Notes: generated by a model from the sequence alone, not told the origin. DNA of 64,000 nt from Candidatus Omnitrophota bacterium (GCA_041649175.1 JBAZNR010000001.1:450332-514331); one strand, 5' to 3'; positions 19,706-62,600 are shown, numbered from the stretch's first letter. A program made the numbers and translations.

Positions 19706-19728
19706 TATTCTAACAACGTTTTTTTATT

Positions 19729-21783: not shown

Positions 21784-21805
21784 TGAGTTCACCTCCTTTA
21801 TTTTT

Positions 21806-22567: not shown

Positions 22568-22624
22568 AAGACAACCCTCCTTTTTTCGTAAATCTGAAAT
22601 TTGATTTATGATAACTGTTGTCAT

Positions 22625-22897
22625 TTATTGGGTCGCCTCCGGGGCCTTGCCAACTTTTTGATATGTTTCAGCCGTCGGTTGCGGATTTTCTTTAATAACC
22701 TTTTGGCCATATTCGCTCAACTCATGCATGCCGTCATCTTTTTTTGGCATTTTATCGGTATGGCAGGCAATGCATTTAGGTGATTCTCCGGGAAAAGCCT
22801 CTTTATATACTTTGATCTCTTTCATATCAGCTTGCGCCGCAACAGCCCATCCTAGAATAATAACAGCGGTTAAAAGAAATAAGTGTTGATGTTTCAT
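22625..22897 (-). CDS. Small periplasmic monohaem cytochrome c (MtoD-like position)
   Basis: 90 aa. A signal peptide (…GWAVAAQA) is followed by a single CIACH. SD GGGAGGAAGG is present. It lies immediately upstream of the MtrA-like gene, with only a 1-nt gap. Confidence 0.75.
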   Translation of the reverse strand: MKHQHLFLLTAVIILGWAVAAQADMKEIKVYKEAFPGESPKCIACHTDKMPKKDDGMHELSEYGQKVIKENPQPTAETYQKVGKAPEATQ

Positions 22898-22929
22898 TGT
22901 GCCTTCCTCCCTTAAAGATTATGAAAAGA

Positions 22930-24522: not shown

Positions 24523-24533
24523 ATTTTTATTCC

Positions 24534-30539: not shown

Positions 30540-30542
30540 TTT

Positions 30543-37603: not shown

Positions 37604-37629
37604 GATGTTTTTTCGTCCTTTTTAAAAAA

Positions 37630-40442
<2,813 letters not shown>

Positions 40443-40445
40443 TAG

Positions 40446-41534
40446 CTAGATCCGCATCGGCAATACTAAATATAAATAATCATTGAGGCGTAAAACACCC
40501 GGCTTGTCCGGGCCCAAAAGTTCCAACTCAACAAACTCATTATCAATATTCTTAAGGACATCGATCAAGTAATGCGGATTGAATCCGACAATTAACTCTG
40601 CCCCTCCATAGGTGATGGCAATTTCTTCCCGGGATTCTCCCACATCCGGTGTTGTTTTTGAAACGATCAATTTATCTGTAAATACTTCAAATTTAACGGC
40701 TTGGAAGTCTGGTGTTGCTAAAAGATTGGCCCGCCTTATCGCTGATAAAAGGTCCAAACGGCTTGTTTTTATTTTAGGGATTGCTGCTTCCGGAATAACT
40801 TGTTTATAATTCGGAAATTCCCCTTCGATAATACGCGTTACAATTAAAGTACCATTGATATCGAACAAAATTTGGTTTGTCCCTACTAATAAAGATAGGT
40901 CGCCTTCATCTTTGAGGTTTCTAACAATTTCTTGAATGGCTTTACTGGGAATAATGGCGGTGATCTCTTTTTTTGTTGGGATAGATAACTTTTTCTCGAT
41001 CTTAGCTAAACGCCGGCCATCCGTTGCCACAACACAGATCTTATTTTCGGATATTTCAAACAAAATTCCATTTAGCACATATCTGGCTTCTTCATGAGAA
41101 ACAGCGAAAGATGTTAAGCGCAACATCTCTTTTAAAACGTTTTGTCCAATCTGGATCGCTTCTCTGTCTTTAAACTCCGGGAATTTTGGAAATTCTTCTT
41201 TAGGAAGACCAGTGAGTTTAAAATGACAATTTTGCCCTTCAATATCGATTTGATTGTTCTTTTTTGTTGTAATAATAATATCCCCTTCGGGTAATTCCTT
41301 AATAATATCACTGATTTTTTTTGCCGGGATCGTGATCGCACCTTCTTCAAGGATACTCACAGGAACTTCACAGGAAATTCCAATGTCCAAATCTGTTGTA
41401 TTGATACGAATGGCTTCGTTTTTTGTTTCAATAAGCATATTGGACAAAATAGGCAGCGAATTTTTTGAAGTTACGATGTTTTGGACAATTTGTATTCCGG
41501 AAAGAAGGTTTTGTTTTGTAGATTTTATTTTCAT
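40446..41534 (-). CDS. dnaN: DNA polymerase III beta sliding clamp
   Basis: 362 aa with three-domain clamp architecture, at the canonical position downstream of dnaA. Confidence 0.95.
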   Translation of the reverse strand: MKIKSTKQNLLSGIQIVQNIVTSKNSLPILSNMLIETKNEAIRINTTDLDIGISCEVPVSILEEGAITIPAKKISDIIKELPEGDIIITTKKNNQIDIEGQNCHFKLTGLPKEEFPKFPEFKDREAIQIGQNVLKEMLRLTSFAVSHEEARYVLNGILFEISENKICVVATDGRRLAKIEKKLSIPTKKEITAIIPSKAIQEIVRNLKDEGDLSLLVGTNQILFDINGTLIVTRIIEGEFPNYKQVIPEAAIPKIKTSRLDLLSAIRRANLLATPDFQAVKFEVFTDKLIVSKTTPDVGESREEIAITYGGAELIVGFNPHYLIDVLKNIDNEFVELELLGPDKPGVLRLNDYLYLVLPMRI

Positions 41535-41608
41535 GAGAACCTTTCTAACTAGTTAACATTTCGGAACGATTAAATATCTATTAAAACAGTATCAGTTGTA
41601 ATAGTGTT

Positions 41609-41617
41609 TGTGGATAA
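41609..41617. promoter_or_regulatory. Perfect DnaA box (TGTGGATAA = TTATCCACA on the opposite strand) in the dnaA-dnaN intergenic region
   Basis: An exact 9-mer consensus lies within the 162-bp A/T-rich dnaA-dnaN spacer. Confidence 0.55.
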
Positions 41618-41696
41618 GTTGAATAAGAATAAAACCATATTAATTACAATAAGTTATGTAAAAAAAGCCTGTTAATATCACTTGAATAAAAAACAA

Positions 41697-43037
41697 TCAT
41701 TGTTTAAGAGTTGTTATTAAGTTTTCAATGGTGTTCTTTAAGCGGTGGTCATTTTTTAAATCTCCATCAATTTTCTTCCAAGAATGTAAAACAGTCGTGT
41801 GATCTTTGCCTCCAAAAGCCGTGCCTATTTCCGGCAGAGAAAAATTGGTCAAATTTCTTGATAGATACATAGCAATTTGTCTGGGAAAAACGACATTTTT
41901 GGTACGTTTTTTTGTTTTAAGCTCTGATAAAGAAATGCTAAAGTGATCCGCCACCGTTTTTTGAATAACATCAATACTAATTAACTTAACTGTTTCTTTG
42001 ACCATGTCCTTTAAGATGAATTTAGCCATGTCTAGCGAAACAGATTTCTCCTCTAATAGAGAATAAGCGACAACACGGATCAAGGCACCTTCCAATTCCC
42101 GAATATTGGTTTTGATCTCTTGGGCGATAAAGTTAATGACTTCATCGGGGACTTTAACGGGTTCCCGTTCAATTTTCTTTCGCAGGATAGCAACGCGTGT
42201 TTCAAAATCCGGAGCCTGAATATCGGTGATCAGCCCCCAAGTAAAGCGTGACCTCAAACGCTCTTCTAAATTAGAGATCTCTTTGGGAGAACGATCGGAA
42301 GTGATGATGATCTGCTTTCGGTCGTTATGCAGAGCGTTAAAGGTGTGAAAGAATTCTTCCTGGGTGGATTCTTTTCCGGCGATAAATTGGATGTCGTCGA
42401 TCAAAAGCACGTCGACGTTTCGGTATTTTTGACGGAATTGAGGTGTTGAGCGATGCCGGATGGCATCAATAAGCTCGTTAGTGAAACGTTCGGAAGTGAT
42501 GTAGCAATGTTTGGTTTCCGGATTGCGGACGTGAATTTGGTGAACGATGGCTTGCAGTAAATGTGTTTTTCCTAAGCCTACGCCGCCGTAAATAAAAAGC
42601 GGATTGTAGGCTTTGGCCGGAGATTCAGCAACAGCAAGCGATGCCGCGTGGGCAAAACGGTTCGAAGAGCCGATCACAAAATTATCGAATGTAAAACGGG
42701 AATTTAAAGCGTTAGGAGGTGTTTGCGCCGCCGGGCCGGAATATTTTTCGGAAGGTTTGGAAGCACGATTGAGAAAATTTTCACCTAAAATATCGGGATT
42801 GACCGAAAACTCAACTTCAACGACCCTTTGAGAAATGTCTTTAAGGGACTCTCGGATGAGGGCCGAATAATGATCGACCACCCAAGTTTTAAAAAACTCA
42901 TCCGGTGTTTCGATCAGAAGCGATTCGGGGTTTTTTTCTTTGATGTTTAGAGAGGAAAACCACGTTTCGTAGGCGCTAGAACCCACTTTTTCTTTAATAG
43001 CGCTCTGGGCTTTTTCCCAGACAGCGGTTAAGCTCAT
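41697..43037 (-). CDS. dnaA: Chromosomal replication initiator protein DnaA
   Basis: 446 aa. It has Walker A 'GGVGLGKTHLLQA', an AAA+ core, and the C-terminal DNA-binding 'DHTTVLHS'. Confidence 0.97.
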   Translation of the reverse strand: MSLTAVWEKAQSAIKEKVGSSAYETWFSSLNIKEKNPESLLIETPDEFFKTWVVDHYSALIRESLKDISQRVVEVEFSVNPDILGENFLNRASKPSEKYSGPAAQTPPNALNSRFTFDNFVIGSSNRFAHAASLAVAESPAKAYNPLFIYGGVGLGKTHLLQAIVHQIHVRNPETKHCYITSERFTNELIDAIRHRSTPQFRQKYRNVDVLLIDDIQFIAGKESTQEEFFHTFNALHNDRKQIIITSDRSPKEISNLEERLRSRFTWGLITDIQAPDFETRVAILRKKIEREPVKVPDEVINFIAQEIKTNIRELEGALIRVVAYSLLEEKSVSLDMAKFILKDMVKETVKLISIDVIQKTVADHFSISLSELKTKKRTKNVVFPRQIAMYLSRNLTNFSLPEIGTAFGGKDHTTVLHSWKKIDGDLKNDHRLKNTIENLITTLKQ

Positions 43038-43495
43038 AAGAAAGACGACCTTTGCTTTTTAAAATACTTCCTTCGGGCAAAAAAACGGCTCCGACGGAAT
43101 TAACAGTTTTTCCACAGCGGTGAATTGCCACCGCTTAACCTCTTTGTCGTCGGAGGAGAAGAAAGACATGTAAAAAGTATTTTTTTTAAAAACGATTGAT
43201 CTTTTTTAAATTTTCAAACGTCCCTATTATAACAAACAATTGTTTTATTTCAATTCAAATTTTTTTGCCTCAAAAAATACCGAAAAATAAGGTACTCTTA
43301 TTTGATGGGCCAAAGCCCGTAAAAATTTTTAATAGGGCTTTGGCCTGCCGCAATTCTTTCTTAAAAGATCCCAATAATTAAGATGTTAACACTTGGTCAA
43401 AGAGCCTGTTTTATTCCATAGTGATCTTGTTTGAAAAATTCCCAACATGTTTAAAGCCAAGATGTTTTGTTCCTCGCTAATGAGTTTTAAAAAAC
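43038..43495. other. Putative replication origin (oriC) region upstream of dnaA
   Basis: A 458-bp non-coding A/T-rich tract (e.g. 43170-43300) lies between divergent dnaA and rpmH. It contains a 1-mismatch DnaA box TTTTCCACA (43108-43116) and several GATC sites. Together with the dnaA-dnaN box it may form a bipartite origin. Confidence 0.45.
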
Positions 43496-43523
43496 TTGAC
43501 TAAGCAAAGCGCTATGTTATAAT
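43496..43523 (+). promoter_or_regulatory. Candidate sigma70 promoter for rpmH (TTGACT-16-TGtTATAAT)
   Basis: The sequence TTGACTaagcaaagcgctaTGTTATAATtgacaaactATG implies a very short (near-leaderless) 5' UTR. Confidence 0.45.
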
Positions 43524-43532
43524 TGACAAACT

Positions 43533-43670
43533 ATGAAAAAACATTTACGCATTCCAACGCTGATAAAAGGCAAAAGAAAGCACGGTTTCCGTCGGAGAAT
43601 GAGCACACAAAACGGACGTGCGATTCTACGCAGGCGGCGCGCCCAAGGCCGCAAGCGGCTTGCAGTTTAA
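43533..43670 (+). CDS. rpmH: 50S ribosomal protein L34
   Basis: 45 aa: [45 protein letters not shown]. Absent from the ORF track (<60 aa), and overlapped by a spurious 99-aa ORF in another frame. Confidence 0.9.
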
Positions 43671-43706
43671 CTCATCTGTCTACCGATTGCTCCATAAAAA
43701 AATTCC

Positions 43707-43916
43707 ATGAAACGATTTTTTTATCTATTGGTATGTGTTTATCAAAAAATCGGCGCATTGTTTTTTGTGTCTCCTTGCCGGTTTTATCCCACATGTTCTT
43801 CCTATGCTTTGGAAGCGGTTGATAAGTACGGTTTAATTAAAGGAATCCCTCGCGTACTTTGGCGTATTTTAAAATGTTCGCCTTTTTCTAAAGGCGGCTA
43901 CGATCCGGTGAAATAA
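43707..43916 (+). CDS. yidD: Membrane protein insertion efficiency factor YidD
   Basis: 69 aa. The motif 'YQKIGALFFVSPCRFYPTCSSYALEA' is the YidD signature. Confidence 0.85.
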   Translation: MKRFFYLLVCVYQKIGALFFVSPCRFYPTCSSYALEAVDKYGLIKGIPRVLWRILKCSPFSKGGYDPVK

Positions 43917-43920
43917 TCCT

Positions 43921-45540
43921 ATGGAAAAAAGAACTATTTTAGCAATAGCCTTATCTTTTCTCGTCATGTATGTTTACAACATGATGGTCACTTCTCAAGT
44001 TGCAAAAACTAAGGAAACTCAAGAGCAAAATATATCACAAGTAATTGAAAATAAACAAGTTATACATAGTGAAGAATCTAAGTTATCCGCAATAGAACCT
44101 GCGAAAATCCTGCCAAGCTCAGGCCAAAAAATATCGGAAGAAATCGTTTTGGTAGAGAACTCAAAAATAAAGTCAGAAATGTCCAATCTTGGCGGCGTTA
44201 TTAAGAGCGTCGAAATCAAAAAATACGGTTATCGTATGCCGGTCGTTGATGTTTTTGGATTGTCTGAATATTCCAGCCTTCCATTTTCTGTAACGAAAAA
44301 AAATGGAAACTCGATTTCTTATCTATGCAGAGACTCCAATTTAGAAATTGAGAAGCGATACGATTTTTCAGATGACACTGATGTTTTGACAGCCGCGATC
44401 AGCATAAAGAACGTATCCGGAGCGCCGATCATTAAAAACCTTTCCATCAATAGCTTTTCTATAGATACATCCAGATTGGACAATATCGTTGATCCCGAAA
44501 GAGACATAAGTCTTTTTGAATATTCGGTTTATTCCGGAAATATGGCTTTTCGCAGAGGGAATGCGTATAAATTTACCATTAAAGATACGAAAAAAACATC
44601 CGGCATGGTGAAATGGATCGGATTTCGCAATCGTTACTATGCAATATTCGTAAAGCCTGAATCCCAGGCCAAAGGATATCAAACCGATTTTGTAAATGAA
44701 AAGCGATTGAAACTTTCCATTGACCATGATGACGTTGCGATCAATCCCGGTGAAGTTTTCACATATTCCGCTAAAATCTACGTCGGGCCGCAAGATTTGA
44801 AATTACTTAAGAGCTACAAGCAGGGTTTTGAAGATATTATGGTATTTAGTAATTTTTCGCCCATTGATTGGGTTTCTAAACTTATTTTGAACGTTATGCA
44901 TATCATTTATAAAGTTATCCCGAATTGGGGCATTGCAATCATTCTTGTAAGTACTCTTGTCTTTTTAGCGATGTATCCTTTGACTTTTCATGGGATGAAG
45001 TCAATGAAGAAAATGCAAGCCATACAGCCTAAAATGGCCCAATTACGTGAACAGCACAAGAATAATCCTCAAAAAATGAACAAAGAAGTTATGGAATTAT
45101 ATAAGCAATACAATGTCAATCCTTTTAGCGGATGCTTGCCATTTTTGCTTCAAATGCCGGTATTTATAGCGCTTTATCAGGCTTTATGGCGCTCTGTAGA
45201 GTTTAAAGGAGCTCCATTTTTATGGATCAAAGATTTATCTGAACCGGACCGCCTTTTTGTTTTCGCTCAAAACCTGCCTATTATAGGGAATGAATTCAAT
45301 TTACTTCCGCTTCTTATGGCCGTTGTCATGTATTTTCAGCAGAAAATATCCATGAAATCAATGTCTTCAGCGGATCCAAATCAAGTTCTACAGCAAAAGA
45401 TCATGCTCGTATTCTTTCCAATTTTCTTAGGGTTTATATTTTATAAATTCTCAAGCGGACTATCTTTGTATTTTACCGTATTTTATCTTCTTTCGACAGT
45501 TTCTCAGTGGAAAATGTCCAAAATGAACTTCGAGAAATAA
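43921..45540 (+). CDS. yidC: Membrane protein insertase YidC
   Basis: 539 aa. It has an N-terminal TM, a periplasmic domain, and the 60-kDa IMP core (…PLTFHGMKSMKKMQAIQPKMAQLREQHK…). Confidence 0.92.
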   Translation: MEKRTILAIALSFLVMYVYNMMVTSQVAKTKETQEQNISQVIENKQVIHSEESKLSAIEPAKILPSSGQKISEEIVLVENSKIKSEMSNLGGVIKSVEIKKYGYRMPVVDVFGLSEYSSLPFSVTKKNGNSISYLCRDSNLEIEKRYDFSDDTDVLTAAISIKNVSGAPIIKNLSINSFSIDTSRLDNIVDPERDISLFEYSVYSGNMAFRRGNAYKFTIKDTKKTSGMVKWIGFRNRYYAIFVKPESQAKGYQTDFVNEKRLKLSIDHDDVAINPGEVFTYSAKIYVGPQDLKLLKSYKQGFEDIMVFSNFSPIDWVSKLILNVMHIIYKVIPNWGIAIILVSTLVFLAMYPLTFHGMKSMKKMQAIQPKMAQLREQHKNNPQKMNKEVMELYKQYNVNPFSGCLPFLLQMPVFIALYQALWRSVEFKGAPFLWIKDLSEPDRLFVFAQNLPIIGNEFNLLPLLMAVVMYFQQKISMKSMSSADPNQVLQQKIMLVFFPIFLGFIFYKFSSGLSLYFTVFYLLSTVSQWKMSKMNFEK

Positions 45541-45741
45541 ATGGAAAAAACCCAAAATAGCATTGAAGTAGAAGGGAAGACAGTCAAAGATGCTATAAAA
45601 AAGGCATTAGAATTGCTCAAGGTTCCTCGAAACGCGATATCAGTAAAGATCGTCTGCGAAGAGAAAAAAGGCCTTTTTGGATTGGATAGCGCAAAACCGG
45701 CAAAAATCATTGTCAGCGTAAATAAAGAAAAAAGACCTTGA
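45541..45741 (+). CDS. Jag/KhpB N-terminal domain protein (66 aa; KH/R3H parts absent)
   Basis: The sequence 'IEVEGKTVKDAIKKALELLKVPRNAISVKIVCEEKKGLFGL' is the Jag_N fold. The gene starts directly after the yidC stop. Confidence 0.6.
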   Translation: MEKTQNSIEVEGKTVKDAIKKALELLKVPRNAISVKIVCEEKKGLFGLDSAKPAKIIVSVNKEKRP

Positions 45742-45790
45742 TTTTCATAGACTCCATTATTAGAATAACGAAGGAATAAGCTTTTAGAAA

Positions 45791-45806
45791 TGTTTCACGT
45801 GAAACA
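45791..45806. promoter_or_regulatory. parS centromere-like site (TGTTTCACGTGAAACA, perfect palindrome) upstream of parA
   Basis: It matches the Firmicute/Proteobacterial parS consensus TGTTNCACGTGAAACA, and lies ~15 bp upstream of the parA ATG. Confidence 0.6.
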
Positions 45807-45820
45807 TTGGATATTGCCCC

Positions 45821-46663
45821 ATGGGAAAAGTCATTTCGGTATGTAATCAAAAAGGCGGCACAGGAAAAACCACTACCACTATCAATTTGTCCGCAGCATT
45901 AGCCTTATCCGGGAAAAAGATCCTTTTAGTTGATGCCGATCCTCAGGGAAATTCTACCAGCGGTTTAGGAATCAACAAAAATACCATCACCAAATCCATT
46001 TATAATGTTTTGCTGAATCAGCTCACCGTCGATGAAATAGCTTTGCCGACGGAAGTTCCTAATTTGAAAGTAGCTCCGTGTAATATTAATTTAACCGGAG
46101 CGGAAATTGAATTAGTTGGCGTTATTTCCAGAGAAACACGCCTAAAGAAAGCCTTAGAAAAAGCAAAGAACGACTATGATTATATTTTTATTGATTGTCC
46201 ACCGTCTCTAGGCTTGCTTACGCTGAATGCTTTGGTGGCGAGTGATTCGATCATTATTCCGATCCAGTGCGAGTTTTATGCCTTGGAAGGCGTATCACAA
46301 CTTCTTAAAACGATCAATTTAATCAAAGACGGATTGAATTCCAGTTTGGACATTGAAGGCGTTGTTTTGACTATGGCTGACTTCCGTACTAATTTAACAA
46401 ACGAAGTCATTAGTGAAATTAAAAGCTATTTTAAAGAACGAGTTTACAAAACGATCATTCCGCGCAACATTAAGCTGAGCGAAGCACCAAGCTTTGGAAA
46501 ACCAATTTCTCTTTATGAAAAAAGTTCCATTGGCGCCAAGCGTTATGAAGAATTAGCCAGAGAATTTTTAGGGGAAGCCTCCGGCGACAATGGCGGAAAT
46601 TATTCGCCGGAATTAGTCGCGTCACAGGAAAACATTTCGGATAAAGAAAAGGCGGGAGAATAA
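45821..46663 (+). CDS. parA: Chromosome partitioning ATPase ParA/Soj
   Basis: 280 aa. The deviant Walker A is 'KGGTGKTTT'. Confidence 0.92.
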   Translation: MGKVISVCNQKGGTGKTTTTINLSAALALSGKKILLVDADPQGNSTSGLGINKNTITKSIYNVLLNQLTVDEIALPTEVPNLKVAPCNINLTGAEIELVGVISRETRLKKALEKAKNDYDYIFIDCPPSLGLLTLNALVASDSIIIPIQCEFYALEGVSQLLKTINLIKDGLNSSLDIEGVVLTMADFRTNLTNEVISEIKSYFKERVYKTIIPRNIKLSEAPSFGKPISLYEKSSIGAKRYEELAREFLGEASGDNGGNYSPELVASQENISDKEKAGE

Positions 46664-46664
46664 A

Positions 46665-47507
46665 ATGGAAAATCGTGCTTTAGGAAAAGGCTTATCGGCG
46701 CTTATTCCCGAAAAAAATATTTCCGTAAAATCTGAATCAGTCACCTATCTTCGCACGACGGAGATCAAAGAAAATTCTCTACAGCCTCGTTTGGATTTTG
46801 ATGATGCCAAATTAGGTGATCTTATTTCGTCCATTAAAGAAAAAGGAGTTTTACAGCCGATCCTTGTTCGAAGAAAAGGCGATGGATACGAAGTGATCGC
46901 CGGCGAACGCCGTTTACGCGCGGCCAAGTCTTTGGATATGGAAGAAGTTCCGGTCGTTATCAAAAATGTTAACGACCAAGAAGCTTTAGTGATCGCCTTA
47001 GTTGAAAATATTCAGCGTGAAGAACTTAATGCCATTGAAGAAGCGCAGGCTTTCAAGAAGCTCATAGAAGATTTCAAATTTACGCAAGATGATGTGGCGC
47101 AATCAGTTGGGAAAGATAGAACAACCATCACCAATACACTGCGCCTTCTAAAGCTTCCTTTAGAGATACAAAAAGCTATTTCCGGTAATTCGATCTCTGT
47201 CGGCCATGGACGCGCGCTTTTAAGCATTGAAAATGAAAGTTTACAAAAGAAACTTTTTCTAAAAATTGTTAAAAATGGTTTGTCGGTCCGAGCCATTGAA
47301 CAACTGGTAAAGCCTGACGCGGACGATCAGGAAAAAAGAAAATCAAGCGCCCATAAAGATCATTACACCATCGATCTCGAAGAAGACCTGCAAAGAATTT
47401 TAGGAACAAAGGTAAGGATCAAAGCACAAAAAAAACAAGGGAAAATTATCATCGAATATTATTCATTAAACGATTTAGAACGAATCATGGGGATCATAAA
47501 AAAATGA
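46665..47507 (+). CDS. parB: Chromosome partitioning protein ParB/Spo0J
   Basis: 280 aa. It has the ParB N-terminal box 'GERRLRAAK' and an HTH. Confidence 0.92.
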   Translation: MENRALGKGLSALIPEKNISVKSESVTYLRTTEIKENSLQPRLDFDDAKLGDLISSIKEKGVLQPILVRRKGDGYEVIAGERRLRAAKSLDMEEVPVVIKNVNDQEALVIALVENIQREELNAIEEAQAFKKLIEDFKFTQDDVAQSVGKDRTTITNTLRLLKLPLEIQKAISGNSISVGHGRALLSIENESLQKKLFLKIVKNGLSVRAIEQLVKPDADDQEKRKSSAHKDHYTIDLEEDLQRILGTKVRIKAQKKQGKIIIEYYSLNDLERIMGIIKK

Positions 47508-54560: not shown

Positions 54561-55604
54561 ATGAATTTGGATTTCAATACTATTGAATTAACAGCCGCCA
54601 ATGAAATAAAGGCGGCTTTACATCAAAAAGACTTAGAAGCACTGCGCATAAAATATTTGGGCCGCAAGGGTTTGATTGCCGAGATCTATGCCAGTCTTCC
54701 CGATCTTTCTGCCGAACAGAAGCCTTCCGTCGGAAAAAATGCCAATGAACTCAAGAATAAGATTGCGCAACTTTTGGAAGAACAAAATGAAGTTTTGAAA
54801 AAATTACCGGGTGCTTTCGGTTCTTCAAAAGAAACCGTAGATATGACAATTCCCGGAGTGGCTATTGCTCCCGGAAAGGCGCATATCTTAACGCAAACCA
54901 TGAATGATATTTGCTCTACTTTCGAAAAGCTTGGGTTTGCGGTCATGGAAGGGCCGGAAATTGAAACCGAATTTAATAATTTTACCGCGTTAAATATTCC
55001 CGTTGATCATCCTTCCCGCGATGCTTTTGACACGTTTTATTTAGACCTCAAAGATGATATAAAGAAAGACCGATTCAAATTGTTGCGCAGTCATACCTCT
55101 CCGGCGCAAATCCGGGTGATGGAACAATTTTCTCCGCCGCTAGCGGTTGTGGTTCCGGGGAAAGTTTATCGTCCCGACGCGGTCGATGCCAGTCATTCGT
55201 TCATGTTCCACCAGGTCGAAGGGCTTTTGGTCGATAGGGATGTTAAATTTTCCGATCTTAAAGGGCTTTTAGAAGCCTTTGCGAAAAAATTCTTCGGGGA
55301 AAAAATCAAGATGCGTTTTCGTCCGCATTTTTTTCCTTTCACCGAGCCTTCCGCCGAAGTGGATATCTCTTGTTATCTCTGCGATGGAAAAGGGTGCTCT
55401 GTTTGCGGTAAAAAAGGGTGGCTGGAGATCTTAGGATGCGGCATGGTCAATCCAAAAGTGTTTGAAGCCGTTGGGTATCCTAAAGATAAGTATACCGGCC
55501 TGGCCTTTGGGATGGGCGTTGAGCGCATTGCTATGCTTAAATACGGCATTGACGATATTCGGTTGTTTTTTGAGAATGATGTGAGATTTTTAAAACAGTT
55601 TTGA
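54561..55604 (+). CDS. pheS: Phenylalanine--tRNA ligase alpha subunit
   Basis: 347 aa with class II motifs (…FRPHFFPFTEPSAEVD…GWLEILGCGMV…). Confidence 0.95.
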   Translation: MNLDFNTIELTAANEIKAALHQKDLEALRIKYLGRKGLIAEIYASLPDLSAEQKPSVGKNANELKNKIAQLLEEQNEVLKKLPGAFGSSKETVDMTIPGVAIAPGKAHILTQTMNDICSTFEKLGFAVMEGPEIETEFNNFTALNIPVDHPSRDAFDTFYLDLKDDIKKDRFKLLRSHTSPAQIRVMEQFSPPLAVVVPGKVYRPDAVDASHSFMFHQVEGLLVDRDVKFSDLKGLLEAFAKKFFGEKIKMRFRPHFFPFTEPSAEVDISCYLCDGKGCSVCGKKGWLEILGCGMVNPKVFEAVGYPKDKYTGLAFGMGVERIAMLKYGIDDIRLFFENDVRFLKQF

Positions 55605-55780
55605 TGATGGCGCTTCAAAAAACCGCTTTCCTAGAAAAGCTATCCTTACGTTGAGTCCTCCCTCTTTTTATAATATACTTATACTATAGTCGCGCCTGTT
55701 CTTTTGAAGAAAGCGCTGGCGCGTATCATAAAGCTAAAAAGCTACCGAAATATTAATGTATTTCTGGGAGGGGTTTGTTC

Positions 55781-57421
55781 ATGCGTAGACTTCATTTATT
55801 GGTGCTTATATTTCTCGTCTCGATTTTGCCTGCGATCGTTTCCGCTCAAAATTCTGAAACAATTTCTCTAACGACCTATTACCCCGCGCCGTTTGGGGTT
55901 TATGACCGTATGCAAATAACACCGCATAATCCGGCGGTAGCTTTGCCGGCGTGTACCAATGCTATTCGTGGAATGATGTTTTATGATGATGCCAATAATG
56001 TGGTGGTTGTCTGCCAGGGGACAGGCCCCAGCTGGTCGAGTTTAGGGTCGCAGTGGACACAAGTCGGAAATAATTTATATCCGACGAATATTAATTCTTT
56101 AGTCGGGATTGGGACAGCAACGCCAACCGCCAGGCTGCACGTTCACGGATCGGTGACTGCGGGTAATGATGCTGTGTATTTGTACAACGCATTTGGCGGC
56201 GGTGGAGGAAGGACATTGAGAGTAGCAAACAACACCGGTAATGTTAGCCCCTTAGCTTCTTTTGAAAATTCCGGCGTTGGCCCGACGGCAACTTTTACCG
56301 GAGGGCGCGTTGGTATTGGAACTAATGCTCCCGACAGCGATACTTTATTGCATGTTGAAAATGGTTCAATTTTATTTAACGGCACAACAGGAAATACTCC
56401 TGTTTCCGGCGCTGGAACAAGGTTTATGTGGATCCCTTCTAAGGGGGCGCTTCGCGCGGGAAGTGTTGGTGGCGCTCAATGGGATGATGCTAATGTTGGA
56501 CTTTATTCTGTTGCTCTTGGTTCCGGCACCATAACGGCCAGCAATACCAATAGCATTGCCTTAAGTCATAATTCGTCCGCAACTGGTTTGCGGGCCATTG
56601 CTATGGGTGAAAGCAGTCAAGCGACAGGGACAAACGCTGTTGCCATAGGTCCCGGAGCGATCGCGACCGGAACCACATCTTTGGCTTTAGGGACGCATAT
56701 CAACTCTGTCGGATCAAATTCCGTAACGATCGGCAAAGGCCTTAGCGCCGCTAATCGCATTACCAATGCAACCAATAATTCTTTAGCTATAGGATTTGAT
56801 TCTAATATTCCGACGATGTTTGTCGGCCCGGCATCGGGAGCCGGAACAACCGGTGATGTTGGTGTAGGTACGGCAAGTCCTCAGGAGAAACTGCATGTTT
56901 CCGGCGGCAATCTTAAAGTCTCCGGTGGAGGGAATTTTGGGGATGATGTTATTGTTGATGGCGGGTTAGTGTGGACATCTCAAAATGACGGCAGCGGTTC
57001 CGGATTAGATGCCGACAGGATCGAAGGCAGAGATTTCTACATCAGAAATACAAATCCACCCGCTGGACCGGCACAGCTTTGTTTTAATGTTGCCGCAACG
57101 GAAAATTGCTCTACACAAACAAGATATTGTAATGGATTTGATGACTTGGGGCCGTTTAACGTCGGTTGTAAACCGGATAATTGGTGTGATGCGCAGTGCC
57201 GCGCGATTTATCCAACACCGCAATCTTTAGCTTCATGTAACGGCAATACAACCTCTTGTGTCGGTGGGACGACAAATACGGGAGTTGGAACTGTAGAAGG
57301 AAGCAGTGAATGTCTAGGGGCTGTTACATCGTGCACATGTTCTTTATCTAATTCAACGTATCAACAAGAATTAGCTAGTTTTGATTCGGGTGTTTGGTGT
57401 GCGAATATTGTTAAGCAGTAA
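55781..57421 (+). CDS. Secreted Gly/Thr/Asn-rich fibre-like (beta-helix/tail-fibre-like) protein, paralog 1, with Cys-rich C-terminus
   Basis: The ATG at 55781 has SD GGGAGGGG (the ORF track starts at a TTG 6 nt earlier). The signal peptide is …AIVSA|QNS. The conserved mature N-terminal module 'ETISLTTYYPAPFGVYDRMQITPHNPA' is followed by recurring 'VGIGTATPTARLHVHG'-type motifs, and then a C-terminal region with ~16 Cys. Confidence 0.75.
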   Translation: MRRLHLLVLIFLVSILPAIVSAQNSETISLTTYYPAPFGVYDRMQITPHNPAVALPACTNAIRGMMFYDDANNVVVVCQGTGPSWSSLGSQWTQVGNNLYPTNINSLVGIGTATPTARLHVHGSVTAGNDAVYLYNAFGGGGGRTLRVANNTGNVSPLASFENSGVGPTATFTGGRVGIGTNAPDSDTLLHVENGSILFNGTTGNTPVSGAGTRFMWIPSKGALRAGSVGGAQWDDANVGLYSVALGSGTITASNTNSIALSHNSSATGLRAIAMGESSQATGTNAVAIGPGAIATGTTSLALGTHINSVGSNSVTIGKGLSAANRITNATNNSLAIGFDSNIPTMFVGPASGAGTTGDVGVGTASPQEKLHVSGGNLKVSGGGNFGDDVIVDGGLVWTSQNDGSGSGLDADRIEGRDFYIRNTNPPAGPAQLCFNVAATENCSTQTRYCNGFDDLGPFNVGCKPDNWCDAQCRAIYPTPQSLASCNGNTTSCVGGTTNTGVGTVEGSSECLGAVTSCTCSLSNSTYQQELASFDSGVWCANIVKQ

Positions 57422-57472
57422 AGAGCAAAATAAATTTTTTAAAAAAGGAATTTCCCATAGGAGGATAAGACA

Positions 57473-58981
57473 ATGCGAAAAAAAATATTATTCATAAGCG
57501 TTCTTGCGATTCTCTTTTCTCCGCCGATTATTCCAAATTCTGTGTTTGCCCAGGCGACGGAAACGATTACGCTTACTACTTATTATCCCGCGCCGTTTGG
57601 AGCGTATGACCGCTTGCAAATCATGCCGCATAATCCAGCGGCTCCTTTACCGACATGCGATGGTTCGACGCTAGGTTTAATGTTTTTCAATGACGCCACT
57701 GACATGATTGTTTCTTGCCAGGGTACAACGCCGGCATGGGTAAATCTAGGTAGTGGATTTTGGACGACCGGCGCTATTCCGGGCAATATTTATACGACGG
57801 ATATCAACTACAATGTCGGCATCGGAACAACAAATCCAACTTCAAGATTGAGTGTCTTAGGCGGTAGTGTCCAATGGGGCGCCGCGACGACATCTAATTC
57901 GCTTAATGCAGATGGAGGTGGATCGATAGAGTTAGGAGCGAGCAGTAATACAACATTAAACCCCGTTATCAATGGTGCGCCTTATATTGATTTTCACTCT
58001 GGATGGCTTGCAGCGCCGCAGGATTTTAATATGCGGATCATTAATTCCACCAATAATCGCCTTGAATTCCAAAAGATGACCAGTGGAGTTACGACAAGTG
58101 TTATGACAATTAATGGAGTTAATGTTGGTATTAAAAATTCATCTCCGGCATATGATTTGTCTATCGTAGATTCCGGTGTTGGATTAGGCAGGCCTGTGCT
58201 TAATCAGCTCGCGTTTTATACAAATTCAGCTGAGAGAATGAGAGTAGATGCTTCAGGAAATGTCGGTATTGGTATAGCAAATCCAGCTGGTTATAAATTA
58301 AATATTGGCGGAGGTGCAAACGGAGCGGCGCCGGTACCACGATTAAAGCTCAGTGATTATTATGATAATGCGGGAAATCCTTCTCTTTCCCATATTGACC
58401 TTTACGGCGGGGCGTATGGTTTTGGCATTAGTTCGAATTCATTAAATTATATTAGCAATCAATATCATCGTTTTTATGATGCCGGGGATTTAGTGACTCC
58501 TGTATTGATGATGAACGGGGATACGAAAAGAGTTGGGATAAACGTAGCGGTTCCGGCAGGAACTATTGATTTTCAAGGAGGAACAGCAGCCGCAAATCAA
58601 AATGGAGTTAGTATGATCCTTCGTGCGCAAGATGGAGGAACTGGAAACACTGATGGAGGGCATATTATTCTGAATCCAGGATCGGGAAGCGGTACGGGAC
58701 AACCAGGAACTATTTGGATTCAAGGTGGGAGCATTGCAGTTGATTTTCAAAAATTGTGCAGAACAACAGATGGAGGTAATTTTACAGAAACTGTTTCGGT
58801 TCCAGCTGGTTGGCCGAAAGGTGCTTGTGAAGAGTATTCAGATGAAATGAATGCCGGAGCAACGCTATTTTCACTTGGCTGTTTATTTAGCGCTAGCGGT
58901 CCAAGCGGATATATAAGTTGGGGGCCCAATTGCAACAATGCTGGTTCTTGCGCTGCTCCTAGCCCCAACTGCGGCTGGTAA
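57473..58981 (+). CDS. Secreted Gly/Thr/Asn-rich fibre-like protein, paralog 2
   Basis: SD TAGGAGGA is present. It has a signal peptide, and the mature N-terminus 'TETITLTTYYPAPFGAYDRLQIMPHNPA' is ~70% identical to paralog 1 over ~95 aa. The motif 'VGIGTTNPTSRLSVLGG' is present. Confidence 0.75.
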   Translation: MRKKILFISVLAILFSPPIIPNSVFAQATETITLTTYYPAPFGAYDRLQIMPHNPAAPLPTCDGSTLGLMFFNDATDMIVSCQGTTPAWVNLGSGFWTTGAIPGNIYTTDINYNVGIGTTNPTSRLSVLGGSVQWGAATTSNSLNADGGGSIELGASSNTTLNPVINGAPYIDFHSGWLAAPQDFNMRIINSTNNRLEFQKMTSGVTTSVMTINGVNVGIKNSSPAYDLSIVDSGVGLGRPVLNQLAFYTNSAERMRVDASGNVGIGIANPAGYKLNIGGGANGAAPVPRLKLSDYYDNAGNPSLSHIDLYGGAYGFGISSNSLNYISNQYHRFYDAGDLVTPVLMMNGDTKRVGINVAVPAGTIDFQGGTAAANQNGVSMILRAQDGGTGNTDGGHIILNPGSGSGTGQPGTIWIQGGSIAVDFQKLCRTTDGGNFTETVSVPAGWPKGACEEYSDEMNAGATLFSLGCLFSASGPSGYISWGPNCNNAGSCAAPSPNCGW

Positions 58982-59048: not shown

Positions 59049-61079
59049 ATGAAAATCTCTCTGAATTGGCTCAATGACTATGTCCCCGTCCGCTTAAAAT
59101 CCGAAGAATTAGCTCATCGGCTCACCATGGCCGGTTTAGAAGTTAAAAAGATCGAAATCATCGGTGGAGATACTGTTTTTGAGATCGAAGTAACGCCTAA
59201 TCGCCCTGATTGTTTGAGCCTCATTGGCATTGCTCGTGAAACATCCGCGATCTTAAATATTCCTTTAAAAATTCCCGGTGTTGGTGGATTTAAAATTTCA
59301 AAAGAAAAAGTCGACATTACTATTTCCGATAAAAAAGACTGCGCGCGCTATATTGGTGCTATCGTCAAGAATATTTCCGTCAAATCCTCCGGTGATTGGC
59401 TCAAAAACCGCCTTATCCCCGTCGGTGTTCGCTGTATTAACAATATTGTGGATATTACTAATTTCTGCCTTTTAGAAACAGGCCAGCCCTTACATGCTTT
59501 TGATTTGGATAAATTATCCGGTGGCAAGATCATTGTTCGGCGCGCCAAAGATAATGAAACGATCACCACCATTGACGGTGTTGAGCGAAAACTCGATCCG
59601 TCCATTTTAGTTATTGCCGATGCTAAACGCGCTGTTGCCATTGCCGGAATTATGGGCGGCAAAGATGCGGAAGTGACCGAACAAACAAAAAATATCCTTT
59701 TAGAAAGCGCCTATTTTGATCCCGTTCTTATCCGTCGGGGTGCTAGAAAATTGGGGCTTTCCAGCGATTCGTCTTATCGCTTTGAACGCGGCGTTGATAT
59801 AAACGGCGTTGCCGCAACCGCCAAACACGCGCTGTTACTTATTAATGATGAAGCTAAAGGAACATTAAGCGCGTATACAGATCTTTATCTTCAAAAAATA
59901 AAAATATCTAAAACAACTATTACGTTGAACTTAAAAAAAGTGGACCGTCTTTTAGGGCAGAAAATCTCTTCGGAAAAATGCAAAAACATCCTGAAAAAAC
60001 TGGGATTTAAAATAAATTTAGCCTCCAAAAACGCGTTAAAAATTGTTCCTCCGGATTTTCGTTTAGATGTTCGTCAGGATGTTGACGTTATCGAAGAGAT
60101 CGCCCGCATGATCGGCTATGACCGTATTCCGGTCAGCCTTCCGCAAATTAAAGTCTCTTCGATCATTTCTCCCATTAGTCAGATGATCAAAAAAACATTA
60201 TCTTCTGTGTTGTGCGGCTATGGATTAAATGAGGCTATCAGCTATACGATGATCAGCCGGAAGTTCTTGGAAAAAACCAATTTAAATGAAACAGATCTTT
60301 TGAAGGTCAAAAATCCTTTAACCCAAGAACAAGAGATCATGCGCCCCTCGGTTTTGCCCGGCTTGTTGGCGGTCGTGTCAACAAACCTTAATCGCGGACA
60401 GAAAGATATTCATCTTTTTGAATGCGGAAAGATCTATTCTTCGTCGGGAGAAAAAGAGACATTAACGATCGTGATGACAGGTCAGTATCGCTATGATTGG
60501 CGAAATCCTAAAACAGGAGAAGCGGATCTCTTTGACCTAAAGGGAATTATCGAAAATCTTTTAAAGACGATCGGCATTAAGAAAATGGATTTTGCGCCTT
60601 TATCCATCGTGTTTCTAGACGAGGGACAGGCGGCGAACATTTTAGCGGCAGATAAAAAAATAGGTTTTTTGGGAAAAGTTTCCGGACAGGTCTTAGATCA
60701 GTGGGATATCAAAAAAAAGAAAGTGTTTTTCGCGCAGTTGGATCTAGAAAAGATCTTTCTAGCGGCACAACCGATAAAAAATTATCAGCCCATTACACTG
60801 TTTCCCGGTATTGTGCGCGATATTAGTTTGGCCGTTAAAGATAACGTAAGTTTTGAGCAGATCCGCGCGCTGGTACGCAGCCATGACGACGGTTTGGTCA
60901 AACAGGTCAATTTTATGGAGCAGTATTTGGGCGAAAAAATCCCTGCCGGCCATCGCGGCCTTATCTTTTCTTTGATCTATCAAGACCAAAAGCGCACGTT
61001 GCGCGAAGAAGAAGTTGCTCAGGTTCACGAGAAGATCTGTCAATCCCTGACGAACCAATTGGGCGCCATCAGACGGTAA
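59049..61079 (+). CDS. pheT: Phenylalanine--tRNA ligase beta subunit (short form, 676 aa)
   Basis: B1, B3/B4, B5, catalytic-like and C-terminal anticodon-binding domains are present (…FRFERGVDINGV…). It lacks the tRNA-binding (EMAP-like) insertion of the ~800-aa forms. Confidence 0.95.
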   Translation: MKISLNWLNDYVPVRLKSEELAHRLTMAGLEVKKIEIIGGDTVFEIEVTPNRPDCLSLIGIARETSAILNIPLKIPGVGGFKISKEKVDITISDKKDCARYIGAIVKNISVKSSGDWLKNRLIPVGVRCINNIVDITNFCLLETGQPLHAFDLDKLSGGKIIVRRAKDNETITTIDGVERKLDPSILVIADAKRAVAIAGIMGGKDAEVTEQTKNILLESAYFDPVLIRRGARKLGLSSDSSYRFERGVDINGVAATAKHALLLINDEAKGTLSAYTDLYLQKIKISKTTITLNLKKVDRLLGQKISSEKCKNILKKLGFKINLASKNALKIVPPDFRLDVRQDVDVIEEIARMIGYDRIPVSLPQIKVSSIISPISQMIKKTLSSVLCGYGLNEAISYTMISRKFLEKTNLNETDLLKVKNPLTQEQEIMRPSVLPGLLAVVSTNLNRGQKDIHLFECGKIYSSSGEKETLTIVMTGQYRYDWRNPKTGEADLFDLKGIIENLLKTIGIKKMDFAPLSIVFLDEGQAANILAADKKIGFLGKVSGQVLDQWDIKKKKVFFAQLDLEKIFLAAQPIKNYQPITLFPGIVRDISLAVKDNVSFEQIRALVRSHDDGLVKQVNFMEQYLGEKIPAGHRGLIFSLIYQDQKRTLREEEVAQVHEKICQSLTNQLGAIRR

Positions 61080-61259
61080 TTAAAAGAATATTACAAAATC
61101 CCTGCTGTGCGCGTTTTGGGTTAAGGTAGTAATGAACCAATACATTAACTACGGGAGCCAAATTTCTAATTGTCCGAAGGACATTTTAGTGAGGCACCCA
61201 CGTAAATTGCAGGTTCAATTTACATCTAACCCGACGGCACCGCGGGGATAAATTTTTCC

Positions 61260-62600
61260 ATGAAAAAACACACATCCTCACCCGACCAAGCAGAGAACCT
61301 CTTCGAAGAAGAAAAGCAGCCCCAAGATCAGCTTAAAAAACTCCCTCTTAGTGTGCGTATGCGTCCGACAACCCTAAACGAAATTGCCGGGCAAAAACAT
61401 ATCTTAGGCGAAGGAAAACTTCTCATCCGTTCCATTGAAGCCGACCGGCTCAGCTCGCTTATTCTCTATGGCCCTCCGGGAACGGGAAAAACGAGTTTAG
61501 CTCACTGCATTAGCTTTGTCACTCAAGGCCATTTTGAAAGCCTTAATGCTGTCTCGTCCAACGTGGAAGAATTACGAAAAGTTATCGCTTCCGCCAAATA
61601 CCGATTTAAAACCACTTCCAAAAAAACGGTCCTTTTTATCGATGAGATCCATCGGTTCAATAAAGCCCAGCAAGATGTTTTAATGCCCGATTTAGAACAG
61701 GGTTATGTGATCTTGATCGGTGCCACTGTTTTTAATCCGTTTTTCGCGCTCATTGGTCCTTTACTATCACGGTCTATCATCTTTGAATTAAAACCTTTGT
61801 CGGCTGAAGATATTATGTCAGTTTTAAAACGCGCTTTATCCGACCAAGAAAAAGGACTTGGCCATCTCAAGATCGAAGCCGAGGAAAATGCGTTAAAGTT
61901 TTTAGCGCAAGTTTGTGAAGGAGACGCCCGCCGAGCGCTTAATGCTTTAGAGATCGGGTGTATGACCACGCAACCCGATAAGGATGATCGCATTCACCTG
62001 ACGTTAGATGTTGTGCAAGAATCCGTCCAAAAAAAACAGGTCAATTATGATAACGATGGCGACGCGCATTATGATACGATCTCAGCGTTTATAAAATCCA
62101 TGCGCGGCTCAGATGCCGATGCTACGCTTTATTGGATGGCGAAAATGCTTTACGCGGGAGAAGATCCGCGTTTTATTGCCCGCCGGATCTGCATTTGCGC
62201 GGCAGAAGACGTAGGCAATGCCGATCCGCAGGCGCTTGTTTTAGCGAGCGCGGCTTTGCAGGTTTCGGAGTTTATCGGCTTGCCGGAGGCCAGAATTCCG
62301 CTCGCTCAAGCGGCTGTTTATGTCGCGTGCGCGCCAAAATCCAATGCCGTATATTTAGGAATAGAAAAAGCCCTTAAAGATGTTAAGGAAAAAAGAGTTC
62401 AAGAAGTCCCCAAGCATCTTAAAGATAGTTCGTATAAAGGCGCCAAGAGTTTAGAGCATGGACAAGGCTATAAATACGCCCATGATTTTGAAAACCATTA
62501 TGTTGCGCAAGAATATATGCCGGAACATACCATTTATTATGAGCCGACAGACCTAGGCTTTGAGAAAGAGATCAAAAAAAGGATGCCCAAAAATCCCTAA
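61260..62600 (+). CDS. rarA: Replication-associated recombination protein A (RarA/MgsA AAA+ ATPase)
   Basis: 446 aa. It has Walker A 'LILYGPPGTGKTSLAH' and Walker B 'VLFIDEIHRFNK', with a C-terminal MgsA helical domain. Confidence 0.9.
   Translation: MKKHTSSPDQAENLFEEEKQPQDQLKKLPLSVRMRPTTLNEIAGQKHILGEGKLLIRSIEADRLSSLILYGPPGTGKTSLAHCISFVTQGHFESLNAVSSNVEELRKVIASAKYRFKTTSKKTVLFIDEIHRFNKAQQDVLMPDLEQGYVILIGATVFNPFFALIGPLLSRSIIFELKPLSAEDIMSVLKRALSDQEKGLGHLKIEAEENALKFLAQVCEGDARRALNALEIGCMTTQPDKDDRIHLTLDVVQESVQKKQVNYDNDGDAHYDTISAFIKSMRGSDADATLYWMAKMLYAGEDPRFIARRICICAAEDVGNADPQALVLASAALQVSEFIGLPEARIPLAQAAVYVACAPKSNAVYLGIEKALKDVKEKRVQEVPKHLKDSSYKGAKSLEHGQGYKYAHDFENHYVAQEYMPEHTIYYEPTDLGFEKEIKKRMPKNP

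Follow-up and report, generated by a model that had tools for sequence, protein, structure and literature searches.

Paralogous secreted proteins encoded between pheS and pheT in Candidatus Omnitrophota: probable adhesive fibres built like the mosaic adhesive trimers of Bdellovibrio

Predatory Bdellovibrio cells display on their surface a class of proteins named mosaic adhesive trimer (MAT) fibres, in which a signal peptide is followed immediately by a conserved, beta-rich N-domain of ~130 amino acids (aa), then by a meandering trimeric fibre with capping loops, and finally by a tip that varies, being an S74 chaperone-protease in the S74 group and of some other fold in the NS74 group (Caulton et al., 2024; PMC10769870). 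The N-domain lacks a homologue in the PDB and is predicted to bind an element of the predator surface, a partner that was left unidentified, and the capping loops were aligned as NVGIGTTxPxAKLx in a comparison that also included Myrf (Suppl. Fig. 18 of PMC10769870). The same study lists one MAT protein from Candidatus Omnitrophica, the S74-like A0A2H0LB00 of 713 aa (Table S3 of PMC10769870). Here we describe two adjacent genes, P1 and P2, located between pheS and pheT in a 64,000-nucleotide stretch of DNA from a Candidatus Omnitrophota bacterium (GCA_041649175.1, JBAZNR010000001.1:450332-514331), the whole of which is referred to below as the window. We consider it probable that their products are paralogous Sec-exported fibre adhesins that belong to, or are built like, the Bdellovibrio MAT fibres, and, judged from sequence, they are best read as short non-S74 members of the MAT-type fibre class.

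Architecture of P1 and P2

The first-pass annotation of the window had reported that pheS and pheT are split by two co-directional genes with strong Shine-Dalgarno sequences. Both genes were found, in a gap of 3,444 bp, preceded by GGGAGG and AGGAGG, respectively. The start of P1 is most likely the ATG at 55781, and the following features were assigned to this gene (positions are those of the window):

55781-57421, + strand: P1, open reading frame for a 546-aa secreted fibre protein, read as MAT-like and of the non-S74 type; GGGAGG Shine-Dalgarno sequence 8-13 nt upstream of the ATG
55781-55846, + strand: Sec signal peptide, aa 1-22, read from the sequence by inspection, with predicted cleavage between VSA and QNSE
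55856-55924, + strand: conserved N-terminal segment ETISLTTYYPAPFGVYDRMQITP, aa 26-48, with T, Y, Y, P, P, G and Y invariant or near-invariant in 71 family members
55925-56098, + strand: small beta domain with two conserved Cys (C..G.MFYD.....VVC.G..W), aa 49-106
56099-56143, + strand: capping loop 1, LVGIGTATPTARLHV, from a regular-expression scan, in agreement with the MAT capping-loop alignment (Suppl. Fig. 18 of PMC10769870)
56306-56356, + strand: capping loop 2, RVGIGTNAPDSDTLLHV, inside a region that aligns with Bd2133 (P1 aa 130-203 correspond to 8OND residues 91-162)
56459-56815, + strand: YadA-head-like left-handed beta-roll repeats, ~aa 227-345, from Pfam PF05658 (3 stretches) and PDB alignments to the BpaC and YadA heads
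56855-56899, + strand: capping loop 3, DVGVGTASPQEKLHV, from the regular-expression scan, aligned to Bd2133 residues 207-255
56978-57418, + strand: Cys-rich tip, aa 400-546, with 12 Cys (from the Cys positions) and no known domain

The features of the second gene were:

57473-58981, + strand: P2, open reading frame for a secreted fibre protein of 502 aa whose paralogy with P1 is confined to the N-module; AGGAGG Shine-Dalgarno sequence 7 nt upstream
57473-57550, + strand: Sec signal peptide, aa 1-26, with predicted cleavage between VFA and QATE, from sequence inspection and the family pattern
57560-57811, + strand: N-module, ETITLTTYYPAPFGAYDRLQIMP, up to the first capping loop, aa 30-113, from BLASTP and alignment to P1 (HMM E 2.4e-26)
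57812-57856, + strand: capping loop 1, NVGIGTTNPTSRLSV, from the regular-expression scan
58121-58165, 58259-58306 and 58529-58573, + strand: further capping loops, from the same scan
58730-58978, + strand: C-terminal tip, aa 420-502, with 6 Cys (from the Cys positions)

Both precursors begin with a predicted signal peptide, as MAT fibres do. Inspection of the sequences identified a basic n-region, a hydrophobic core and a c-region with a small-x-small site (VSA before Q in P1, VFA before Q in P2), in line with the original annotation, and the same pattern was seen family-wide. The mature proteins then share a conserved module of ~100 aa (hereafter the N-module), which occupies the position of the MAT N-domain. 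By BLASTP, the first 130 aa of P1 and P2, including the signal peptides, are 52% identical (E 1e-38). A shared mature N-module had been claimed at ~70% identity; the module is real, but this value is too high, since the mature ~100 aa are 58-59% identical and ~80% is reached over the first ~27 mature residues only. Downstream of the N-module the remainders are 24% identical, and the two genes share a repeat at their 5' ends (D1) of 98 nt that is 78% identical. No further copy of the N-module was found within the window. When AlphaFold2 was supplied with an alignment of 78 sequences, a five-stranded beta domain was predicted at P1 aa 52-101 (pLDDT 86-91, i.e., ~90), giving the module a beta-rich character, and the preceding segment, aa 26-48, was modeled in the monomer without secondary structure (pLDDT 63-76).

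The shaft that follows, along with the overall architecture, carries the evidence for kinship with MAT fibres. Recurring VGIGT-type motifs had been noted in both proteins, and a regular-expression scan placed three in P1 (aa 107, 176 and 359) and four in P2 (aa 114, 217, 263 and 353), each corresponding to the MAT capping loop, xVGIGTxxPxxKLxV. The family profile, which covers the N-terminal ~240 positions of 78 members, matched five Bdellovibrio fibre chains in the PDB, namely 8OND (Bd2133, E 1.5e-11), 8OML and 8ON4 (both Bd1334), 8OL4 (Bd2439) and 8OJN (apparently Bd3182, its entry being garbled in the published table), and gave a weak match to Myrf (7DC3, E 0.2). P1 as a single sequence matched 7O23 (BpaC, 4e-10), 1P9H (YadA, 4e-6) and 8OND (Bd2133, 5e-6), and its alignments with Bd2133 outside the YadA head covered aa 105-139, 130-203 and 357-401, comprising two capping loops and shaft. 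Both proteins are rich in Gly, Thr, Ser, Ala and Asn.

The ends of P1 and P2 also follow the MAT plan, in that they are variable: neither protein contains Peptidase_S74, and each terminates in a Cys-rich tip unrelated to the other, resembling the NS74 group. The C-terminal module of P1, previously described as holding ~16 Cys, is indeed Cys-rich, but 12 of the 14 Cys in the protein lie within aa 434-540. P2 contains 8 Cys, 6 of them C-terminal. The P1 tip had no match in Pfam, NCBIfam or the PDB, and the sole homologue found for it was the C-terminus of another N-module protein, P0107 (34% identity over 143 aa); for the P2 tip a homologue was not found.

The beta-roll of P1 (PF05658, E 2e-12) raised the question of whether the pair might represent classical trimeric autotransporter adhesins of the YadA/Hia type, exported by type V secretion. 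The top PDB matches of P1 are heads of such adhesins (BpaC, YadA, Hep_Hag), and P1 scored 21.7 bits against the NCBIfam model YadA_autotrans. However, the cut-off of that model is 750 bits, far above the score obtained, and neither the C-terminal anchor PF03895 nor a stalk or neck was detected with Pfam. Furthermore, the C-termini are Cys-rich and soluble-looking, the conserved module is N-terminal, giving a polarity opposite to that of trimeric autotransporters, and P2 lacks any signal of this class. The absence of the anchor refutes this reading, to which we assign next to no probability.

The N-module family

Searching with the 99-aa N-module of P1 against a word-indexed database returned no match, a limitation of the index, given that an exhaustive HMMER profile search of 1.84 billion representatives returned 8,468 matches at E<1e-3, of which 956 were at E<1e-10. 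The consensus of the module is xE(S/T)(I/L)T(L/I)TTYYP(A/S)P(F/Y)G(V)Yxx(L/M)R(L)xP, then C...G.MYYD.....L.VC....W, and the invariant or near-invariant residues are T, Y, Y, P, P, G, Y, P, C, G, C and W. In ~70 of the top 150 matches (170-740 aa), the full N-module was present at residues ~25-130, directly after the signal peptide. Also among these 150 were giant proteins of 1-4.9 kaa, which matched only the last ~45 profile positions, 15-30 times each, through a repeat ('W..G..IYP....VGIGT..P...L.V') that is a generic shaft repeat. Giant repeat proteins of this kind (P0003-P0010 and similar) number in the thousands, and the capping-loop unit is therefore widespread beyond Bdellovibrio and Omnitrophota.

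In 107 family members, the TYYP motif starts at a median precursor residue of 32, small residues stand just before the conserved Glu, and the conserved segment lies 0-4 residues from the predicted signal-peptidase site. All N-module members with a source name are hypothetical proteins of Candidatus Omnitrophota, and the module has no Pfam or NCBIfam model. What follows the N-module varies. Three members (P0040, P0052 and P0087) join it to YadA_head repeats and a C-terminal Peptidase_S74, and ~100 'tail fiber domain-containing' proteins, spread over many phyla, match P1 at aa ~150-390 with 35-50% identity. Since the same head/S74 cassette is joined elsewhere to PF07963 or to PF18962 (the latter in Bacteroidota relatives), a role of the N-module as a targeting or anchoring device would fit.

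Genes of the family are found in assorted surroundings. Among 79 metagenome loci with 107 N-module open reading frames, only 5 loci are at pheS/pheT, the other recurrent neighbours being pyrR/pyrB, rsmI, a miaB-like gene, dapA, smc and, in a minority of loci, a radical-SAM cluster. When 160 loci were surveyed for a recurrent partner gene, only housekeeping neighbours were found in addition to this minority cluster. The proteins encoded at the cluster are short members of ~130 aa, in which a signal peptide and the TTYYP segment precede a Cys-rich tail whose last residues are 'MLCC', and their genes lie directly upstream of genes for HxsD, a radical SAM/SPASM protein, a second radical SAM protein and a Peptidase_A24-like protein (L084:10001-16285; also L134/L135, L161, L129 and L148). 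They may be post-translationally cross-linked mini-members of the family.

These short members bear on the idea that the N-module is a recognition or leader element for maturation or dedicated export, with fibres as one cargo type of an undescribed Omnitrophota sorting system. Consistent with it, at least 5 loci have a short N-segment protein encoded directly ahead of HxsD, radical SAM/SPASM and Peptidase_A24-like genes, the same fibre cassettes carry pilin N-termini or type IX secretion system (T9SS) sorting domains in other phyla, and two of the pheS-linked loci described below (L013 and L014) keep only the first ~25 residues of the module. On the other hand, radical SAM enzymes are cytoplasmic, whereas the segment comes behind a Sec signal peptide; only a minority of loci show the association, and no sorting or maturation genes were found near P1 and P2 or the other pheS-pheT arrays. 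We regard this proposal as improbable. A related candidate, in which P1 and P2 would be cargo of a T9SS or of type I secretion (T1SS), was rejected, as no Por_Secre_tail or RTX-type signal was detected in either protein with Pfam or NCBIfam; the C-terminal secretion signals that the first-pass annotation had proposed to look for were thus not detected.

The alternating hydrophobic pattern of the N-terminal segment had also been likened to donor strands, raising the possibility of a pilus-like fibre polymerised from P1 and P2 subunits, in which the segment of one subunit is inserted into the next, as in chaperone-usher pilins, TasA and archaeal threads, and short and long paralogues serve as major and tip subunits. 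The distance from the segment to the predicted cleavage site is 0-4 residues in all members, the segment has an alternating I-x-L-x-T-x-Y pattern, and its lack of structure in the AlphaFold2 monomer (pLDDT 63-65) ahead of a confidently modeled domain is what would be expected of a strand that needs a partner; in addition, numerous members have the length of a pilin (125-138 aa), and the genes often occur in tandem. However, an unstructured N-terminus in the monomer fits a trimer interface or a partner-binding peptide equally well, and no recurrent chaperone, usher, sortase or assembly gene lies beside the family, whose neighbours are the assorted housekeeping genes listed above. Moreover, features characteristic of self-contained trimeric fibres, namely S74 domains, capping loops and YadA-head rolls, are present in the long members. 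Because S74 chaperones and capping loops indicate trimeric fibres and not polymerised pilins, the donor-strand idea is less likely, and we consider the pilus-like alternative as a whole to be unlikely, if slightly less so than the leader proposal. Type IV pilins were rejected, as PF07963 did not match and the mature N-terminus (ETISLTTYYP) has polar and aromatic residues where a hydrophobic helix would be expected.

Several observations weigh against placing P1 and P2 among the MAT fibres. Their membership would derive from the shaft and the overall architecture, with the N-module only a possible counterpart of the Bdellovibrio N-domain, and the short capping-loop motif, which is also present in giant repeat proteins and in Myrf, is a mark of fibre fold more than of function. 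Many N-module members are merely 125-138 aa long, too short for fibres, so that the role of the module may be broader than fibre anchoring. P2 on its own had no significant match in Pfam or the PDB, and its single-sequence AlphaFold2 model was poor (pLDDT 34). Finally, export signals for T9SS, T1SS or autotransport were not found in P1 or P2 with Pfam and NCBIfam. These points leave room for a second, tentative reading, less favoured than membership in the MAT class but ahead of the alternatives above, in which the N-module is an undescribed, Omnitrophota-specific surface-anchoring or sorting device placed at the signal-peptidase site and distinct from the Bdellovibrio MAT N-domain. If so, it would tether very large polymorphic cargo, from fibres of 500-700 aa to Cys-rich mini-proteins of 125 aa, some of them radical-SAM-coupled, and the gap between pheS and pheT would be a conserved high-expression slot near the origin for the repertoire by which these ultra-small bacteria, dependent on hosts, recognise them.

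The gap between pheS and pheT

The pairing of pheS with pheT is near-universal, and in most of 80 Omnitrophota pheS loci pheT begins 3-120 bp after pheS. In the window the operon order on the + strand is thrS-infC-rpmI-rplT-pheS-[P1-P2]-pheT, with P1 and P2, co-directional with their neighbours, filling the 3,444 bp between the two synthetase genes. The boundaries of the gap and the candidate signals within it are:

54561-55604, + strand: pheS, phenylalanyl-tRNA synthetase alpha subunit, from Pfam tRNA-synt_2d (E 1.8e-100) and Phe_tRNA-synt_N; upstream boundary
55651-55679, + strand: weak sigma-70-like promoter candidate, TTGAGT-17-TATACT (9/12), from a consensus scan, inside the 176-bp spacer between pheS and P1
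58959-58988, + strand: candidate terminator-like hairpin with T-run, from the consensus scan, overlapping the P2 stop codon
59011-59039, + strand: strong sigma-70-like match, TTGACA-17-TAAAAT (11/12), the best site of the consensus scan, 10 nt upstream of pheT
59049-61079, + strand: pheT, phenylalanyl-tRNA synthetase beta subunit, from Pfam B3_4, B5, tRNA_synthFbeta and FDX-ACB; downstream boundary

The consensus scan for promoters and terminators yielded no more sites than in shuffled sequence. Because the 11/12 match sits 10 nt upstream of pheT, it suggests that pheT gained a promoter of its own after its separation from pheS.

To place the gap in its lineage, other pheS loci were compared. 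The window pheS is 60-76% identical to pheS from Candidatus Omnitrophota metagenome-assembled genomes, a protein identical to P1 is annotated as hypothetical in one such genome at NCBI, and an identical 4.2-kb contig is present in run SRR8542065. Genes with the N-module were found at the pheS-pheT locus in ten genomes, 1-5 in each, with gaps of 0.7-9.4 kb in those genomes where pheS and pheT are both on the contig; in one (L049), a single N-module gene is in the gap and a second directly follows pheT. An HMM scan of all open reading frames in 1.2 Mb of pheS-centred loci detected 23 N-module genes, every one of them in the gap or beside pheT, and none in the ±10-kb flanks. In a neighbour-joining tree of pheS, the occupied loci formed three groups. 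The first is the whole clade of the window (window, L004/L123, L010, L008, L009, L013, L014 and L159), in which the gap was occupied in every resolvable genome; the second is a small clade of L049, L047 and L040/L126, with one unoccupied member (L041); the third is L132 alone. Two gaps of the window clade also hold non-fibre cargo, a pair encoding an RHH antitoxin and a RelE-ParE-like toxin at L024:4231-4965, with a new signal-peptide open reading frame at the contig end, and a DUF6036 nucleotidyltransferase at L009:12355-12834, and the gap therefore behaves as a small variable island.

Within these arrays the beginnings of the mature proteins are mostly much more alike than their ends. Over the first 95 residues of the mature proteins, most pairs within pheS-pheT arrays share 45-89% identity (one pair 35%), whereas for the remainder the values are 1-43%, mostly <35%. 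The contrast was seen in the arrays of the window, L004, L010, L013 and L159 (49-89% versus 1-37%), with conservation in L013 and L014 limited to the first ~25 N-module residues, and there was little or none of it in L008 and L009. Such a mosaic, seen also in the exchanged cassettes and unrelated tips noted above, has been described for MAT fibres, and it leads us to view the N-module as cell-proximal and lineage-specific, and the tip as variable and ligand-binding.

The first-pass annotation had treated the genes as an insertion and, as one option, as a domesticated phage tail-fibre module. Peptidase_S74, an intramolecular chaperone, is typical of phage fibres. Several features would fit a recent horizontal transfer that placed a domesticated phage tail-fibre cassette, or what remains of a prophage, between the two synthetase genes: P2 matches phrog_9942, a 'tail fiber protein' (E 4e-8); P2 aa 108-375 weakly resemble phage 'chaperone of endosialidase' fibre genes (27-31% identity, E ~1e-4, tblastn against INPHARED); there are weak structural echoes of Mtd and tailspike N-termini; and the GC content of P1 and P2 is above that of the flanks. 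The rise in GC, however, is entirely at codon position 2 (0.51-0.55 versus 0.30-0.40), an effect of amino-acid composition, and GC3 is slightly low (0.39 in P1 and 0.34 in P2, versus ~0.44), with a synonymous-codon score that is low-normal and within the host range. Unlike virion fibres, P1 and P2 carry predicted Sec signal peptides. Scanning 2.9 million IMG/VR contigs with an N-module pattern revealed no relative, and tblastn with P1 against 50,697 INPHARED phage genomes gave no match; the INPHARED tblastn matches did not extend over the N-module, save for one weak match reaching its C-terminal part. As had been stated, no phage genes flank the pair, and none were found in the 64-kb window; there are no att-like direct repeats around the insert, no integrase and no tRNA target, the four tRNAs of the window all lying elsewhere. 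The same family fills the same gap across a clade whose pheS proteins are 60-76% identical. The phage-cassette alternative is thus already largely refuted, and we hold it to be very improbable, though not quite to the degree of the autotransporter reading. Recent horizontal insertion was likewise rejected, on the composition effect, the lack of att-like repeats and the clade-wide occupancy: because one family fills this gap throughout the window clade, the apparent insertion is an old, lineage-conserved and copy-number-variable slot for 1-5 such genes, close to the origin.

That location was apparent from the surrounding genes. The origin region of the window (35150-47507) contains gyrA, gyrB, dnaN and dnaA on the - strand, then yidC, parA and parB on the + strand, placing P1 and P2 ~13 kb from dnaA. 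GC skew was positive over 48-64 kb, the only part of the window that was profiled. Directly after pheT lies 6S/SsrS RNA (61096-61252, + strand; Rfam RF00013, 57.8 bits), followed by a rarA/mgsA-like AAA+ gene (61260-62600).

Farther away in the window, several gene groups were noted. A multihaem cytochrome cluster (16231-26288, - strand) encodes MtrC/MtrF-like domains, NapC/NirT, a cytochrome b561 fusion and paired CXXCH motifs, adjoins the cytochrome c biogenesis genes ResB/CcsA, and contains a 699-aa open reading frame (19729-21828) without a Pfam match; it may be an extracellular electron-transfer module. At 28986-34053 (+ strand) is a polyphosphate cluster with genes for Ppx/GppA, polyphosphate kinase 1, a CHAD-domain protein and an HD/Ppx domain-III protein. 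Two overlapping open reading frames of ~355 aa without a Pfam match (1648-3715, - strand) adjoin a PpiC-type rotamase gene (570-1499), and a conserved Rotamase_2 gene has been described at Omnitrophota secretion loci in a preprint on giant genes (10.1101/2023.11.21.568195).

Proposed working and comparison with known systems

If P1 and P2 are MAT-type fibres, their precursors would be exported to the periplasm, where the signal peptide would be cleaved. At the predicted mature N-terminus both proteins have the 23-residue segment ExITLTTYYPxPxGxYxxLRLxP, followed by a small, putatively disulfide-bonded beta domain, a shaft with 'xVGIGTxxPxxxLxV' capping loops, to which P1 adds a YadA-head-like beta-roll, and a Cys-rich tip of each protein's own. 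Three chains would fold into one fibre, as suggested by the YadA_head repeats and by the relatives that bear S74. By analogy with MAT fibres, the conserved N-module would hold the fibre on an element of the bacterial surface, and the variable tips would project outward to bind different ligands on host or prey cells or on surfaces. The tip repertoire appears to have diversified by tandem duplication in which the 5' module is kept and the 3' ends are exchanged, and the conserved 5' DNA (98 nt, 78%) would help in tip exchange.

A lifestyle of host dependence, predation or parasitism has been predicted for Omnitrophota (PMC10066038), and it makes an adhesin role for P1 and P2 plausible without proving it. 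The architecture as such was already known, as MAT fibres have been published with one Omnitrophica member listed (PMC10769870). The earlier proposal of a novel surface fibre or adhesin pair therefore stands in its description of a fibre or adhesin with phage-fibre and beta-helical character (YadA_head, Bd2133, the S74 relatives and the P2 shaft) and fails in the word 'novel'. What is new here is modest: an N-module defined by sequence, so far only in Omnitrophota and with no database model, Cys-rich tips, and a slot, conserved in the clade, that splits pheS from pheT. The split itself is a curiosity of genome organisation, not a new mechanism.

Omnitrophota are uncultured and ultra-small, many of them being predicted predators or parasites of other microbes, and discussion of how they recognise hosts and attach has so far centred on type IV/Tad pili and giant open reading frames. 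The present results would add a small, fast-diversifying set of Bdellovibrio-type fibres, with a conserved base and swapped tips, that is maintained in the window clade and in two or more further lineages of the phylum. P1/P2-type fibres would then be concrete, clonable candidates for determinants of host range, and the motif TYYP[AS]PxGxY offers a simple sequence handle for mining the repertoire from metagenomes and for seeking the surface element to which the fibres may be anchored.

Among known systems, trimeric autotransporter adhesins (YadA, BpaC, Hia) share with P1 the left-handed beta-roll head repeats and differ from both proteins in their C-terminal beta-barrel anchor, coiled-coil stalk and opposite polarity. 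Phage fibres and tailspikes (K1F endosialidase, T5 pb1) and the Bordetella phage protein Mtd are similar in logic, combining a conserved, particle-proximal N-terminus with a variable, distal receptor-binding tip and a triple-beta-helix or fibre body, and weakly so in sequence (the P2 shaft) and fold (the N-terminal hairpin of Mtd); in contrast, P1 and P2 have Sec signal peptides, a non-phage chromosomal context, no S74, and an N-module that was not found in phage databases. The 'tail fiber domain-containing' class (YadA_head plus Peptidase_S74, from Acidobacteriota, Bacteroidota and others) resembles P1 in its capping loops and in the head-entry motif 'GAGTRxMWxPxKxAFRAG..W.D.N.G', but relies on other targeting modules (a 'xxYQGRLTD' N-domain, the type IV pilin N-terminus PF07963 or the T9SS C-terminal domain PF18962), and most of its members end in S74, which is absent from P1 and P2. 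The Bdellovibrio MAT fibres (Bd2133, Bd1334, Bd2439, Bd2734, Bd2740 and Bd3182) differ in that P1 and P2 are half the size (~500 versus ~1,000 aa), have an N-module defined by the TTYYPxPxGxY segment, carry Cys-rich tips that are not among the solved Bdellovibrio tips, and are encoded inside the pheST pair, with a YadA-head roll inserted in P1. They are alike in the order of signal peptide, N-module, capping-loop shaft and variable tip, in the occurrence of S74 and non-S74 subtypes, and in a multi-copy repertoire with tip swapping, carried by an organism that is predicted to be predatory or parasitic.

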